Assembly (NCBI GenBank): GCA_040400605.1
Contig: JBBAPZ010000004.1
Location: 16,721-80,720 of the forward strand
Length of the DNA: 64,000 nt
Source of the DNA: Candidatus Sericytochromatia bacterium
Lineage (GTDB): Bacteria; Cyanobacteriota; Sericytochromatia; S15B-MN24; JAQBPE01
Direction of reading: 5' to 3'
In this document: one piece after another, positions 39,001 to 48,000 of the stretch
Numbering within the stretch: position 1 is the first letter of the stretch
Layout of the letters: each line of letters begins with the position of its first letter
Position numbers: made by a program

Positions 39001-42000
39001 CAACAAACCAACCAAAGGGAGACATTGCATGCACCCTGTTGATTTGTCGTGCGAGCTTGCCGGCATTCGCGCGCCCAACCCTTTCTGGCTGGCTTCCGCG
39101 CCGCCAACCAACACGGCAACGCAGGTGCTGCGGGCCTATGAATGGGGGTGGGGCGGGGCAGTCTGGAAAACCCTTGGCAAGCCTGTCCGCAATGTTCAAC
39201 CCCGCTTCACCGCCATGCACACGGCTGCGGAACGGATGGTGGGTTTCAGTAACATTGAATTGATCACGGATCGCCCATTGGAAGATAACTATCGGGAGAT
39301 CGCTGCCGTTACCGCCCGCTATCCGGACCGTGCCACCATCGTCTCTTTGATGTTCGAAACCGAGGATGAATGGAAAGAACACATTGAGCGTTCGGTAGCG
39401 GTCGGTGCCCAGGGGCTTGAACTGAATTTCGGCTGTCCTCACGGCATGTGTGAGCGGGGCATGGGCTCAGCAGTCGGTCAGGAACCGGCGCTTGTTGAAA
39501 CCATTACGCGCTGGGCCGTGCGCTACGCTGGTGTGCCGGTGCTGGTCAAGTTGACCCCCAATGTGACCGACATTATACCGCCCGCGTTGGCTGCCCAGCG
39601 AGGAGGCGCCCATGGTGTCAGCCTCATTAACACCATCAAAAGTGTCATGGGCGTGGACCTGGATCGTATGGTGCCTTTACCCGTGGTGGGCGATGCCTCA
39701 ACCAACGGCGGTTATTGTGGCCCCGCAGTGAAACCTATCGCCTTGCACATGGTGGGTGCCTTGGCGCGGCACCCCGAGTTCCGGTTGCCAATTTCGGGGA
39801 TGGGTGGGATTGGTACCTGGCGCGATGCGGCTGAGTTTTTGGCTTTGGGGGCACGTTCGGTACAGATCTGCACCGCCGTGATGCACCACGGTTATCGCAT
39901 CATCCATGATTTAACCGAAGGCTTGGGCCACTGGATGGAAGAAAAAAATTATCGAACGCTGGATGATTTGATCGGACGTGCTGTGCCAAATTTTCGCTCC
40001 TGGGAAGATCTGGATCTCAATCATCGCGTGGTGGCCCGTATTCAGACTGATAAGTGCATTGGTTGTCAGTTATGTTACGTCGCCTGCCTGGACGGTTCCC
40101 ATCAATGCATTTATCTGCCGGATGCCGAACACCCGGATGCGCCCATTCGCCTTGCTACCGAGTCACGGATGCCTTGGGTTGCAGAAAATGAATGCACCGG
40201 TTGTCAACTGTGCCATTTGGTCTGTCCCGTGGAAGGTGCCATCAAGATGGTGCCGCTTCACACAGGGCAGCCTAGGCAAAGCTGGCGCGAGCTTCAAGCC
40301 CTTGCCGTGACTGAATCCGGCACAAGCAATGATTCAACGCTTGAAGGGCGGCAAGGGTTTTGGCAGACTCAAGGCATTGGTTGAGAGTTGTCCGGATTCG
40401 AAGATGGTTAGCCAGCCTTGGCGTGCCAGCGTCCACAGCGTCGTTTCCAGAGTCGCTGCCGGCTGTTCCGATCCCAAGACCTCACACAATTGCCCCACCG
40501 TGCGCTCTCCCATCAACATATCTTTGCGCATCGTATCGCTCAAACGTGATACTTCGAGGTACTCGACCGTTGCGCTATCGGGTGGCAAGGTGAGTACCTG
40601 GGGTTTTAAAAGCGCTTTTTTGCCTTCGGAAAACTGTAGTTTGTCATAGAGGTCGTCGTGACGCAGGGTGCCGTCATTTTGACGAAACAGGCAGCGTGCT
40701 TTGCCATTGACGGTGTACTCCACGCGAACAAGGATTCGCTGGGCCAGGCCGCCGGTCGCGGGTTCCAGCTTGAAGTAGGCCGGTTCAGCGACGCTTTGTT
40801 CAATCGCTGCAAGGTCAACATATTTTAGGCGATCGCCGTCCCGAACAATCATGCCGGACAAATCGCCACGGGCGTGATCCGCTTTCCGGGTCACACCCAG
40901 AATGAGCCGCGGTCCCATCGGTGACTGCGCCATTAGTCTCCCCTTCCCGTGATTGCCTGTTTTCACCCGCCGGCGACCAGTGTATCACGCAAGTGGCGCC
41001 TGAACCTCAATTTGACCCATGGCACCGTGGCACGCAGACACCGTCGCAATGAGTATCGTCAGGGGCGTTTGGCGCGCGCGGGCTAATTTCAGGACCTGCT
41101 CACGCTCGGCGCGCAGTTGGCGCACACTGACAGAGGCGACGCCCAGGGCAATCTGTTCACACACAAGCACAATCAAGGCACTCACATCGGGCCACGCTTG
41201 CGCTTGCTCGCGCAAAAACCGTGATTGTTCCCAGGTGCGTGGCCCCCTGGTTGCTGGACAACGCTCGGGTTCGGTGCAGGCAGCCGGGCATAGCCAGTCG
41301 GCGAAAGAAAAATACAAGGCGCCGTCTTGACCGAGCTTTACAAAGGGTTGTTCAAAGGTATGACGCACCGGCTCGGACCGAACGGTTCGGGGAGCCAATT
41401 GTGCCGCGAGTGCGTGGAGCAGCCAATGTTGAAAAAGGTGCGGCGCCAAAGGTGCTGGAATGATGTGGTCTCCGCTGGTTCCATCCGCCTCGTCGTCAGC
41501 GTTTTCGATGTATCCCCTTAAAAATTGATCCCATTCAGCGTGAATATGACGCACGTCCCGGTGGGTCCCCAATTCGTCTTTCACGCGGGTTTCCAACGCG
41601 TGATCCACAACCAGCAGGTGGCGAAACTGCGTGAGGCCGGTGTCACGTGCGCGCAAAAGACGGCTGACGTGATGATAGCCCCAGCAACCACCTCCAATGA
41701 CGATCACGTCGCGCATTGGCCACGTTAACTGGGTGGGGGAAGTCTTTTTTGAGTAGTGCTCTGGGGGCATGGTCCTCACCGAAGCAAAAAACGAGATAAA
41801 CCGCGTCTTTTCATTCTACCGGTTGGGGGACTCGAGCGGTATAATGAAGGTTCGTGCACGCGCCAAGAGGAACAGTCTCCCAATGAAATCATCACGGATA
41901 CCGGGTTTTTACAAGCTGTCTTTGGCGGAACGCCTGGCTCGCTTGGCAGACACCTACGATCTGAGTGTCTCTGAAGTTGAGGCACTGCGTTCGCAAGGGT

Positions 42001-45000: not shown

Positions 45001-48000
45001 GTTGCGAAAGCGATCGCCTTGGGGGCTGACCTTGTCAGCCTGGCCAATCCCCTCCTGGCGCCAGCCTTGGAGAGCGCCGATGCCGTTGTCGATTGCCTGG
45101 AGCAAATCATTTTGGAACTTCGCGTCACATTGATGTTGCTTGGGTTGCGTGATGTCGCCGCACTTCGCAATCGGCCGGATTTATTGATGGAGGTTGGATT
45201 ATGAGCCAGGCGATCGCTTGTGCCAACAGCAACATTGCGTTAATCAAGTACTGGGGCAAGCGCGACGAGGCGCTGATCTTGCCTCATAACGGCAGTCTCT
45301 CGTTGACCCTGGACGGCCTGTATTCCACCACCCGGGTGTCGTTTGAGGAAGACCTGAAAGCTGATCACTTTGAACTCGACGGCGCGATCATCACAGGTAC
45401 ACCGCTAACACGCGTGAGCGATTTTTTGAATTGCATTCGCGCGATGAGTGGCGAGCGCCGTTTTGCGCGGGTTCAATCAACCAACCACTTGCCCACCGCT
45501 GCCGGCTTGGCCTCCTCCGCATCAGGGTTTGCCGCACTTGCTCTGGCAGGAACGCGTGCTGCCGGATTGAACCTGGATCCCGCGGATTTATCCCGCCTCG
45601 CAAGGCTTGGTTCCGGTTCCGCCTGCCGTTCGATTTACGGCGGTTTCGTTGAATGGCGCCGGGGCAGCGAGTCAGACGGCCGTGACAGTCACGGTGTTCC
45701 CATCGTTTTAGCGCAGGATTGGGACCTGCGCATGCTGGTCTGTGTGTTGATGAGCAAACCCAAAGGCGTGTCCAGCCGTGCAGGCATGGCACGAACCGTC
45801 GCGACCTCGCCTTACTACGCTGCGTGGATCAGTGAAGCACAACGGGATCTCGAACAGGCCCGAACCGCCATTGATATGCATGACTTCGAAACCCTCGGAC
45901 AATTGACCGAGCACAGTGCCCTGAAGATGCACGCGACGATGCTGACTGCACATCCGCCCTTTTGTTACTGGCTGCCCAGCAGCGTTGCCTTGATGGATCG
46001 TGTGCGTCAGTTGCGTGCCGATGGCCTGGCCGCCTACTTTACGCTCGACGCAGGGCCCAATGTCAAGGTTTTGACCACGGGTAAAGATGCCGCCACCATC
46101 GCTGCCGCTTTGGAACAGCAAGCGGGTGTTGAGCGGGTGTTAATGTGTGCCGCTGGCAAGGGTGCGCGTTTGATTGATGAGGAGCAACAAGGTGCCGAAG
46201 CAATGCCTTGAAGTGCGTGTGCCGGGTAAACTGTTGATCGCTGGCGAATATGCGGTACTTGAACCCCACGCGCCAGCCGTGGTGGTGGCGGTGTCCCGAT
46301 ACATCCGAATTCGGATTACCCCGGCGCCCGTAGGCCTTTTTGATGCGCCAAGCCTCGGTATTCTGGCCTATGAGTGGCGTGCGACCGCGGAAGCCGTCGC
46401 CTTCGAACGTGAGGATGACAGGCTGTCGTTTGTCACGGCGGCCTTGAACCAGGTCAGGCGTTATCTGACGATGCAAAACAAGGCACTCCAAAACTGTCAT
46501 ATCGTCATCGACAGTGATCTTCAAGACGCCAACGGTCTCAAGTACGGATTGGGCAGCAGCGCCGCCGTTGTTACAGCAGTGGTTGCCGGTATGCTGATTT
46601 GGCACCAGGGACCGGATGACCACCCACCAGATGCCACGATTATTTTCAAACTCGCTGCATTGGCACACCTGGCGACGCAAGGCAGTGGTTCAGGGGTTGA
46701 TTTGGCCGCCTCGTGTTTTGGCGGCTGGTTGCGCTACTCGTCGTTTCATCCCGCCTGGTTGCAAGAACGCATCGATTGGCCCCTGCCTGAGTTGCTCAAA
46801 AGTCCTTGGCCTTTTTTATCTGTTGAACGCTTGTCACCGATTCCCAAGGATCTGCGTTTGATGGCTGCCTGGAGTGGCACATCCGTGAAGACATCCGCGA
46901 TGATTGAGGCCGTTGTCGCGGTGCGCGAGAGCAACCCCACCGCCTACGAGCGATTTTTACATGATTCACGCATCAGCGTGGAGCACCTGGTGGCGGGCTT
47001 ACAGTCCGCCAATCCGGGACGGATCCTCGCAGCCATTGAACGCAACCGTCAAGCCCTGCTGCGATTAAGTGAGGCTGCGGCCGTTCGCATCGAAACCCCC
47101 GTATTGCAACGCTTGCACGCACTCGCCGTGGAAGCCGGCGGCAGTGGCAAACCGTCCGGCGCCGGGGGGGGCGATTGTGGCATCGCCGTCATCTTCGGTG
47201 AACGCGAGGCGGCTGCCTTGGCCGAAGCCTGGCGCCAAGGAGGTGTGCTGCCACTGCCCCTATCGGTGTCGGATGCGGGGGTGACGGTCAGCCGAATCGA
47301 TTGGTAACCAATTCAACATTCACCACTTGTCAGCCGTTGGTTGCGCGCGCCACGCAGGCGCCAATTGACTCGCAGGATGTTGATAGCCATTCTGGTCACA
47401 TCCTCACAACTCCGTGCCCAGCAGTCGCAAAAAGGTCTCTGGTTCGAATTCGGCTTTCTTGATGAACGCAACAACGCCCAATTCGGCCGCGTTCGTTCGA
47501 TCACTGGTGCGCACGGTTTGAGTCCCCGTTAGCGACGAGTTTGCGCGCCACACATGATGAGAAGGCATACTGGGTCGTCGTGACGCCACACGGTCGAACG
47601 CCGTACTGCTCCCCAACGGCCTGACGCAAAAGTCGAGTGCAACATCTCACAGCTTCCTGACCTGAACCAGGCGTCAGAACGCTCGGCATCTGAATACGAT
47701 GCAATTCAGTGTTTCCACATGGGGACGTGAACGCCTACAAAACGAGGAGTTACTGGGTGCGCACGAGATGGCTGAACGCGCATCCCGTGCCAAAACCAGC
47801 TTTCTCACTAACATGAGTCACGAGTTGCGCATACCCTTGACGGCAGACATTTGGTGAACGAGACTGGGAGCGTGTTCGAGCCCAATCCCATGCCCTTCGC
47901 GGCATCGCAGGGACACAGGGATTCCCGCGATTCACCGTCTTTGCCGGTGAACTCGCGGATCACACTCCCTTCGGGCACTTCGCTGAGGCCCATGAGGCAC

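Follow-up and report, generated by a model that had tools for sequence, protein, structure and literature searches.

The window, a stretch of 64,000 nucleotides from a genome of Candidatus Sericytochromatia, non-photosynthetic sisters of the cyanobacteria, carries a cluster of mevalonate (MVA) pathway genes in a phylum, Cyanobacteriota, whose members have been treated as users of the MEP pathway (first 26 of 84 matching rows in Table S1 of PMC13001223; Vampirovibrio in PMC4451040). The locus raises the question of how this bacterium makes its isoprenoids, and from where it obtains HMG-CoA. Isoprenoids are essential, and reliance on MVA by most of a Cyanobacteriota class would alter how isoprenoid and quinone metabolism is reconstructed around the origin of oxygenic phototrophs. 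In the literature searched, we found no earlier report of the pathway in Sericytochromatia; the metabolic tables of MAG papers could hold one.

The mevalonate operon

We examined the five same-strand, overlapping ORFs at positions 41769–47307 by profile search, and each scored above its NCBIfam equivalog cut-off (Table 1). The intact five-gene operon was found again in an independent metagenome contig, which bears out the description of these genes as an MVA operon in the genome-wide survey's note. The HMG-CoA reductase (HMGR) gene likely starts at 41883 rather than at 41769, given an AAGAGGA site at 41865–41871 and the N-termini of homologues; the starts given for the other four genes are likewise the likely ones, that of the phosphomevalonate kinase (PMK) gene being a GTG after GAGGAG, with an overlap of 20 nt with the preceding gene. 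The catalytic residues E82, K269, D285 and H383 of the reductase are all present. The archaeal MvaD model gave 188 bits with the decarboxylase, far under its cut-off of 475, and the nearest named relatives of the PMK outside the class were from Bacilli (41–46% identity).

Table 1. Positions in the window of the operon genes and neighbouring features
Feature	Positions	Strand	Evidence and remarks
Menaquinone genes and polyprenyl diphosphate synthase (IPP consumers)	14425..25629		Context only
Divergent upstream gene, AF_1314_C (PF27252)-like	40985..41716	-	Not thiolase-like; not recurrent beside MVA genes
TATAAT, -10-like, perfect match	41840..41845	+	Sequence; divergent intergenic region; putative function
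Class II HMG-CoA reductase, 428 aa	41883..43169	+	TIGR00532, 423 bits (cut-off 260)
Mevalonate kinase	43169..44161	+	TIGR00549, 217 bits (cut-off 163); TGATG overlap with HMGR
Type 2 IPP isomerase	44158..45204	+	TIGR02151, 374 bits (cut-off 281); GTGA overlap
Diphosphomevalonate decarboxylase	45201..46211	+	TIGR01240, 330 bits (cut-off 171); ATGA overlap
Gram-positive-type phosphomevalonate kinase	46192..47307	+	TIGR01220, 296 bits (cut-off 166)

Upstream of the TATAAT there was no good match to a -35 element, and the hexamer was not among the calls of a promoter and terminator consensus scan, which performed at chance level. One of the two upstream ORFs searched gave the AF_1314_C match and the other gave no match at all. 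Among the menaquinone genes, menD, menB and a menG-type gene exceeded their cut-offs, with menE-like and menH-like genes slightly under theirs.

Judging from the families encoded, the operon would lead from HMG-CoA through mevalonate, mevalonate-5-P, mevalonate-5-PP and IPP to DMAPP. It resembles the classical MVA pathway of Gram-positive cocci and Bacilli (mvaA or mvaE, mvaS, mvaK1-mvaD-mvaK2, fni) in its class II HMGR, mevalonate kinase, Gram-positive-type PMK, diphosphomevalonate decarboxylase (MVD) and type 2 isomerase, but differs in that MvaS was detected in 0 of 47 class genomes and the operon includes no thiolase gene.

Mevalonate and MEP genes across the class

The survey's note had stated that MVA replaces MEP, with two genomes possessing both pathways. 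The first statement held: 39 of the 47 class genomes carried this reductase, 7 carried Dxr and IspG, none carried both sets and one carried neither. Dxr and IspG, both present in the same 7 genomes, were not found in the genome studied here, in which IspF and IspH were checked by short motifs only. The two supposed double cases (G019 and G027) have no MVD, and their HMGR is of an unrelated, class-I-like kind; this split therefore replaces the earlier count. Because the MEP pathway is absent, the operon would be the only isoprenoid route. All but one of the 39 MVA genomes have MVD, which was seen in none of 354 genomes sampled from the rest of the phylum. The best named matches of the IspG of G019 were from Desulfuromonadales (64–67% identity); the MEP pathway of families f3 and f4 may have been kept or regained.

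The operon had also been described as syntenic in four families, which proved too broad, since the full five-gene order was kept in families f1 and f2 only, with rearranged genes in f4 and f5 and split genes in f6 and f7. PMK was not found in the neighbourhood of the f6 MVA genes, and clustering of the neighbours of 48 loci revealed no gene, besides the MVA genes themselves, that recurs beside the operon across families.

Search for an HMG-CoA synthase

We searched all 47 genomes for HMG-CoA synthase (HMGS) using TIGR01835 and a custom profile, and detected it in none; in MVA genomes, TIGR01835 reached at most 47 bits (cut-off 360) and the custom profile at most 68 bits, compared with 246 bits for a Myxococcus control. 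PF01154 exceeded its cut-off in 0 of 4 genomes, including the three-contig genome G033 (control, 133 bits). With these positive controls, the earlier observation that no HMGS is recognisable was confirmed for the whole set. Its reservation that g00005 (G000:C1:6219-7172) might be a divergent HMGS was not upheld: the catalytic Glu, Cys and His are all missing (the Glu is absent, the elbow Cys is a Thr and the His a Gln, and the Asn is a His as well), and the KAS-III matches of two f6 genomes include no orthologue. Other candidates were rejected as well. Two FabH-like proteins (C8:96977 and C8:100590) and an OleA-like protein (C7:28641) lack the HMGS glutamate and are located in fatty-acid or PKS-type clusters, and a weak match on contig C49 was a methyltransferase-like ORF. 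In G027 (157 bits, the best match in the class) and G404 (100 bits), Cys-less HMGS-like proteins belong with DUF35/thiolase modules, whose domains were named by eye; G027 is a MEP genome.

Homology searches are blind to a non-homologous enzyme, and one outside the known HMGS families might condense acetyl-CoA and acetoacetyl-CoA to HMG-CoA. Four thiolases, none linked to the MVA operon, are present here, and the missing HmgS of Legionella is likewise unexplained in PMC13001223 (section 18). We nevertheless regard such an enzyme as unlikely, in that every thiolase-fold protein here could be assigned (two FabH-like proteins, an OleA-like one, g00005, the four thiolases, and KAS/PKS domains), the HMGS glutamate is missing from all four KAS-III-type proteins, HMG-CoA lyase is the sole PF00682 Claisen-type enzyme, a motif scan gave one citrate synthase, and no neighbour gene shared by the MVA genes was found. 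In Legionella, as that source describes it, MVA genes likewise occur without a recognisable HMGS, which is raised there as an open question; PmvK is also missing there, whereas the lower pathway is complete here in f1, f2, f4, f5 and f7 (PMC13001223). The present case makes this problem testable.

Leucine breakdown as a probable source of HMG-CoA

The survey's note proposed that HMG-CoA probably comes from leucine breakdown or else from an unrecognised synthase, and the former emerged as the best-supported reading (MCC beta subunit in 38 of 39 MVA genomes, hydratase, IlvE), as a probable rather than an established source, being drawn from gene content; we assign a probability of about 0.65 to scavenged leucine as the only source. 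The steps would be catalyzed by IlvE, a branched-chain 2-oxo-acid dehydrogenase, an acyl-CoA dehydrogenase, methylcrotonyl-CoA carboxylase (MCC; Yng-type, or LiuB-type in f7) and methylglutaconyl-CoA hydratase. The reductase would divert a small share of the HMG-CoA from HMG-CoA lyase, which would burn the remainder.

In this genome, the branched-chain aminotransferase IlvE exceeded its cut-off (TIGR01122, 325 bits against 246), and there are four E1-alpha/E1-beta sets as well as acyl-CoA dehydrogenases, none of which a curated model assigned to branched chains. A biotin carboxylase-biotin carrier-lyase cluster and a YngE-type carboxyltransferase are also present; G011, G013 and G023 combine biotin carboxylase, carrier, lyase, hydratase and carboxyltransferase in one operon. 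In Bacillus subtilis, yngJ-I-HA-HB-G-F-E is a leucine catabolic operon, and the yng and liu clusters serve catabolism only, their hosts making isoprenoids by another route. The operons of f2 and f4 are similar in content to B. subtilis yng and to Pseudomonas liuRABCDE as outlined in PMC9636800, and f7 has the LiuB-type subunit; unlike in those systems, the class genes lie dispersed in f1, f6 and f7, and no LiuC/YngF orthologue was found in f7.

The two forms of the MCC beta subunit were mutually exclusive. The YngE-type was found in 25 of the 26 non-f7 MVA genomes, the single miss being a 75% complete genome, and the LiuB-type (828 bits to 3U9R) in 13/13 f7 genomes and 0/34 others. The YngE-type protein shares 71–76% identity with Bacillaceae carboxyltransferases, and against solved structures it scored 309 bits with MCC and 382 bits with PCC; since it is not closer to MCC than to PCC, its putative assignment as MCC draws on gene order and the B. 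subtilis precedent. The best PDB matches of the hydratase here gave 300, 263 and 247 bits, with human methylglutaconyl-CoA hydratase among these, compared with at most 224 bits for ordinary crotonases, and this hydratase occurred in 24 of the 26 non-f7 MVA genomes at an identity of at least 53%. The YngF/AUH-type was found in 0 of 13 f7 genomes, and the PF00378 matches of four f7 genomes included no clear LiuC; a one-glutamate candidate was all that was found.

LeuC was found in 0 of 47 class genomes, the PF00682 search revealed no LeuA-like pattern, and IlvD was not found in 4 of 5 genomes. The class cannot synthesise leucine, and isoprenoid carbon would thus come from scavenged leucine, peptides or isovalerate; lacking HMGS, MEP and leucine synthesis, most members probably depend on outside leucine for isoprenoids. 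This arrangement looks old in the class. Several observations speak against such a shunt: the lyase, present in 37 of the 39 MVA genomes, competes with the reductase for HMG-CoA; f7 has no recognisable hydratase; the carboxylase is not specific to MVA genomes, occurring also in 6 of 7 MEP genomes; and the leucine genes lie apart from the MVA operon. The lyase-free genome G007 was not counted in favour of the shunt, because its entire carboxylase-carrier-lyase cluster is missing, and it was therefore treated as an assembly gap.

The lyase could also run in reverse, with a thiolase and a 3-oxoacid CoA-transferase supplying acetoacetate, the lyase adding acetyl-CoA and the NADPH-driven reductase pulling the product. 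This would need no hydratase, in line with the gap in f7, where the lyase is retained, and the CoA-transferase B subunit exceeded its cut-off in each of the 6 genomes searched for it. We consider it rather improbable, however: the HMG-CoA lyase reaction strongly favours cleavage, the enzyme here is of the ordinary type (331 bits to PDB 1YDO) and sited among leucine-catabolic genes, and forward leucine catabolism needs the transferase and thiolase equally.

Distinctly improbable, in our estimate, is that mevalonate or its phosphates are taken up from prey or surroundings and converted to IPP by the lower pathway, with a mainly oxidative reductase such as that of Pseudomonas mevalonii. The best HMGR model is named 'degradative', the top PDB matches are NADH-type enzymes, and a lyase is present. 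However, in P. mevalonii-type catabolism (mvaAB) the enzyme has an NADH-type helix motif and the reductase is linked to the lyase, and neither was found here. In the cofactor helix, HPKMVER, the NADPH motif is represented by its His and Arg, with Lys in place of Ser; the Asp and the Dx(V/L)xxxL of the NADH motif were not found in it. The terminal Arg was kept and Dx(V/L)xxxL was missing in 31/31 class sequences examined. The reductase gene is grouped with biosynthetic genes (mevalonate kinase), not with a lyase or transporter gene; reductase and lyase lie on separate contigs here and ~19 kb apart in genus g10.

Loss of an ordinary HMGS in assembly or binning is very improbable, for even though all genomes are MAGs and the present one seems to lack the plsX/fabH/accC region and has likely foreign contigs, HMGS was seen in 0 of 39 MVA genomes against ~35 expected from completeness alone, and was missing also from genomes rated 98–100% complete and from the three-contig genome.

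A shunt from leucine through HMG-CoA to sterols has been demonstrated genetically in Trypanosoma brucei, where, in the account given in PMC5993337, the same five steps precede HMGR and a lyase gene co-exists; that organism also has thiolase and HMGS, with leucine as one of several sources, whereas here leucine would be the sole entry, in cells that lack leucine synthesis. If so, this would be a bacterial lineage with an obligate leucine shunt, and cultures should need leucine, peptides or isovalerate, be insensitive to fosmidomycin and be rescued by mevalonate. Should leucine not be the source, HMG-CoA would be formed by a new enzyme or a reversed lyase, either of them of relevance to isoprenoid engineering.

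The broader proposal, to which we give even odds, is that an obligate leucine shunt supplies all undecaprenyl phosphate, menaquinone and carotenoid carbon of most Sericytochromatia from the leucine of other organisms, that it goes back to the ancestor of the class and persisted in one family in which the carboxylase, and probably the hydratase as well, was replaced by a non-orthologous enzyme, that it suits a life of scavenging or predation, and that some Bacillota acquired it from the class. Use of MVA in place of MEP together with loss of branched-chain amino-acid synthesis also belongs to the 'predatome' signature that Pasternak et al. (2013), as given in PMC4451040, described for predatory bacteria; the predators, as summarized there, differ in having standard MVA enzymes, predation in the class is hypothetical, and the MEP members of the class also lack LeuC.

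Distribution of the mevalonate operon

In the window, which covers positions 16721–80720 of contig C4, we identified five ORFs on the plus strand between positions 41769 and 47307, each of which scored above the curated NCBIfam cut-off for its mevalonate (MVA) pathway enzyme. Gene starts were set from ribosome-binding sites and homologue ends, and the predicted overlaps of 1, 4, 4 and 20 nt are as in a coupled operon. The GC and GC3 contents were those of the flanking genes. An independent 27-kb contig from another study covers positions 40975–50500 with 415 differences and no gaps, indicating that assembly did not create the operon. 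The five-gene operon described in the genome-wide survey's note is real and intact. A 210-aa ORF on the minus strand (40334–40966), for which nothing above 0.8 came from Pfam, NCBIfam or Atlas, is kept near the operon in four f1 genomes (f1 to f7 denote families of the class).

Genes of the mevalonate operon in the window
Gene product	Start	Strand	Basis or junction
Class II HMG-CoA reductase (HMGR)	41883	+	NCBIfam, ribosome-binding site, homologue ends
Mevalonate kinase (MVK)	43169	+	1-nt overlap with preceding HMGR
Type 2 IPP isomerase (IDI)	44158	+	4-nt overlap with preceding gene
Diphosphomevalonate decarboxylase (MVD)	45201	+	4-nt overlap with preceding gene
Gram-positive-type phosphomevalonate kinase (PMK)	46192	+	20-nt overlap with preceding gene

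Operon-type class II HMGR was found in 39 of the 47 Sericytochromatia genomes, and MVD in 38 of these 39, the single miss being a 66% complete genome. IspG and Dxr of the alternative MEP route occurred together in seven genomes (G019, G020 and G023–G027), none of which belonged to the HMGR-bearing 39, and one 82% complete genome (G031) contained neither the MVA reductase nor Dxr/IspG. In other words, the two pathways are mutually exclusive in the class. Sampling 354 genomes elsewhere in the phylum gave no MVD, a count that does not single out Vampirovibrionia. Vampirovibrio is described as a MEP user in PMC4451040.

Two of the note's claims about relatives did not stand. The two genomes credited with both pathways carry a different, class-I-like reductase and lack MVD (the PF00368 search covered five of the eight non-MVA genomes), and the synteny reported for four families proved narrower: the order HMGR-MVK-IDI-MVD-PMK is kept in the seven f1 and six f2 genomes examined, IDI is displaced in f4, f5 has a permuted block spread over two contigs, and f6 and f7 have a split one, with no PMK found beside the f6 MVA genes.

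Several features of these loci were also observed. Class-I-like reductases without a lower MVA pathway are present in the MEP genomes G027 (locus L154:1306-2673) and G019 (L155:109-2295), one of them fused to a lipid-kinase-like domain. At MEP loci L151 and L153, dxr adjoins ispG, and IspG is of a short type with its best named matches in Desulfuromonadales. A CcmP-like tandem BMC shell gene (L137:6857-7477 in G036 and syntenic f7 loci; NF053796, 260 bits against a cut-off of 340), a carboxysome-shell relative within a non-photosynthetic class, lies directly upstream of the reductase on the same strand in 10 f7 genomes. In G038, a type I-F-like CRISPR-Cas block, recognized by eye, directly follows HMGR-MVK-IDI (L149:11070-19999).

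Search for an HMG-CoA synthase

TIGR01835 exceeded its cut-off in none of the 47 class genomes (47 bits being the top score of any MVA genome), and TIGR00748 reached at most 32 bits in this genome. We built a custom HMG-CoA synthase (HMGS) profile from loci around related reductases, in which nine of 11 HMGS proteins of three divergent types were aligned; the Myxococcus synthase, which was not among the aligned sequences, scored 246 bits, and MVA genomes scored at most 68 bits, the matches checked being FabH. PF01154 passed in none of four class genomes, including the three-contig G033, and its controls passed (archaeal controls; Myxococcus, 133 bits). Had the genomes carried an HMGS, their stated completeness would have led to about 35 detections. 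In this genome, 30,129 six-frame ORFs were searched without a filter; every match was a FabH-like, OleA-like, thiolase or KAS protein, and the HMGS glutamate was present in none of its four KAS-III-type proteins. This MAG apparently lacks its plsX/fabH/accC region; it is therefore the class, rather than this genome, that carries the case for HMGS absence. The central observation of the note, namely the operon, the absence of MEP genes and the lack of a recognizable HMGS, was confirmed, the last of these across the 47 genomes with positive controls, although its candidate for a divergent HMGS had to be abandoned along with the two corrected claims: the FabH-like protein g00005 lacks the HMGS glutamate, cysteine and histidine, the cysteine position having been read against orthologues where automatic alignment misplaced that column.

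Further features of condensing enzymes emerged from these searches. In the KAS-III-like family of g00005, which adjoins an SDR-like gene (L118:1720-2673, equivalent to G000:C1:6219-7172 of this genome; also L013 and L014), a Gln/His pair replaces His/Asn, and the cysteine is present in G007 and G013 and replaced in this genome. In G027 (L121, contig C33) and G404 (L185, contig C33), Cys-less HMGS-like proteins occur with a DUF35-like domain and a thiolase, either as fusions or as neighbours. Locus L002 (G000:C7:21841-33294) is a polyolefin-type cluster, in which oleA-, oleB-, oleC- and oleD-like genes (oleB–oleD named by eye) come after a PfaA-like polyketide synthase. On the small contig C80, which looks foreign and may belong to the 4.9% contamination, a DegQ-like gene accompanies a second FabF.

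Leucine breakdown and HMG-CoA supply

LeuC was above the cut-off in none of the 47 genomes, the nine weak matches being aconitase-sized proteins of about 900 aa; PF00682 gave one strong, lyase-sized match in 44 genomes and a second strong match in G025 only; and IlvD was missing in four of five genomes checked. The class is without leucine synthesis. Together with the leucine-catabolic genes, this suggests that the class imports leucine and degrades it via HMG-CoA.

This genome encodes IlvE, four E1 pairs and several acyl-CoA dehydrogenases, as well as a row on contig C11 comprising biotin carboxylase, a 70-aa biotin carrier and HMG-CoA lyase. Its YngE-type carboxyltransferase on contig C4 is 71–76% identical to Bacillaceae proteins and nearer to solved PCC than to methylcrotonyl-CoA carboxylase (MCC) chains, and the best solved relatives of its hydratase include human methylglutaconyl-CoA hydratase. 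Among PDB entries, we take 5JBW/5JBX to be M. xanthus LiuC, 1YDO B. subtilis YngG and 3KQF a Bacillus protein. In G011, G013 and G023, the carboxylase, carrier, lyase, hydratase and carboxyltransferase form one operon, presumably in the order of B. subtilis yngHA-HB-G-F-E; we found no readable account of Yng function in the literature. Leucine and MVA genes are unlinked.

An MCC-type subunit of either form was found in 38 of the 39 MVA genomes: YngE-type in 25 of 26 non-f7 MVA genomes and no f7 genome (G014 partial, G028 with frame breaks, the 75% complete G032 being the miss), and LiuB-type in 13/13 f7 genomes and 0/34 others, a 45% match in G031 belonging to a paralogue group and not being counted. 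The lyase is kept in 37/39 MVA genomes. The YngF/AUH-type hydratase is present in 24/26 non-f7 MVA genomes and 0/13 f7 genomes, and is poorly matched by every f7 hydratase tested. All four f7 genomes tested carry a one-glutamate hydratase family that this genome lacks. The one-glutamate pattern is that of LiuC-type enzymes, and this family is a candidate methylglutaconyl-CoA hydratase. The f7 gap need not be fatal, because the Liu pathway of S. coelicolor, as described in PMC9636800, operates without a LiuC homologue in its cluster. The carboxylase is also kept in six of the seven MEP genomes; therefore, the leucine route is not confined to MVA genomes. The 95% complete MEP genome G019 is a single case without carboxylase, hydratase and lyase.

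On gene content, leucine breakdown is the only recognizable source of HMG-CoA in the class. Imported leucine would be degraded to HMG-CoA, which the reductase and lower MVA pathway would convert to isoprenoids, with HMG-CoA lyase competing for the same intermediate; we estimate the probability of such a carbon flux at roughly 0.65. Against this reading stand the retained lyase, the carboxylase of the MEP genomes, the greater closeness of the YngE-type protein to PCC than to MCC, the f7 hydratase gap and the separation of leucine from MVA genes. A reversed lyase might instead supply HMG-CoA, and is genetically possible because a 3-oxoacid CoA-transferase was found in six of six genomes tested.

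The lower pathway is that of the classical MVA route, from which the class departs by lacking a recognizable HMGS. A leucine shunt has been demonstrated in T. brucei (PMC5993337), where it operates alongside thiolase and HMGS; the route proposed for the class most likely works alike. For Legionella, PMC13001223 describes HmgS-less MVA sets without an explanation; its Table S1 contains no Sericytochromatia row, and among its 84 Cyanobacteriota matches the first 26 are MEP throughout. The predator signature, as summarized within PMC4451040, combines MVA with loss of branched-chain amino-acid synthesis. No paper containing both Sericytochromatia and mevalonate was found, and the titles and abstract openings of related work show no such report.

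Two further observations concern acyl-CoA enzymes. In this genome, one open frame encodes two complete, tandemly arranged acyl-CoA dehydrogenase domains (L113:5816-8521; G000:C3:71815-74520). Part of f7, as seen in G039 (L132, L133), has extra carboxyltransferase-biotin carboxylase pairs of the MCC/geranyl-CoA carboxylase group (586 bits to MCC, 486 to geranyl-CoA carboxylase), through which further branched or terpenoid acyl-CoAs could enter the same route.

Direction and history of the reductase

The best model names the reductase 'degradative'. All catalytic residues are present, and the cofactor helix reads HPKMVER, with His and Arg present, Lys replacing Ser, and Asp absent; the Arg is kept in 31/31 class sequences examined, and the first position is variable. 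Motifs of (H/Y)xSxxxR for NADPH enzymes and Dx(V/L)xxxL for NADH enzymes are given in PMC13488460. The closest PDB sequences are NADH-type. The helix features and the coupling to mevalonate kinase favour a biosynthetic direction.

Out of 102 reductases, we selected 33 (15 class, 18 others) for a tree built by a careful method, and also made a 62-row quick tree. The class sequences and those of four outsiders, MAGs labelled Bacillota or Actinomycetota, formed one clade (98/96), and f2, f6 and f7 formed one starred clade each. The four outsiders nested within the f1 group (100/99), and a topology uniting the class to their exclusion was rejected (p-AU 0.027). This fits a reductase that is old in the class and was exchanged later, in either direction, given that the search behind the outsiders had an f1 protein as its seed. 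The four outsider genomes searched yielded no intact HMGS. Their MCC subunits are YngE-type in two, LiuB-like in one and neither in a 2-Mb MAG, and three of the four share the exact five-gene order.
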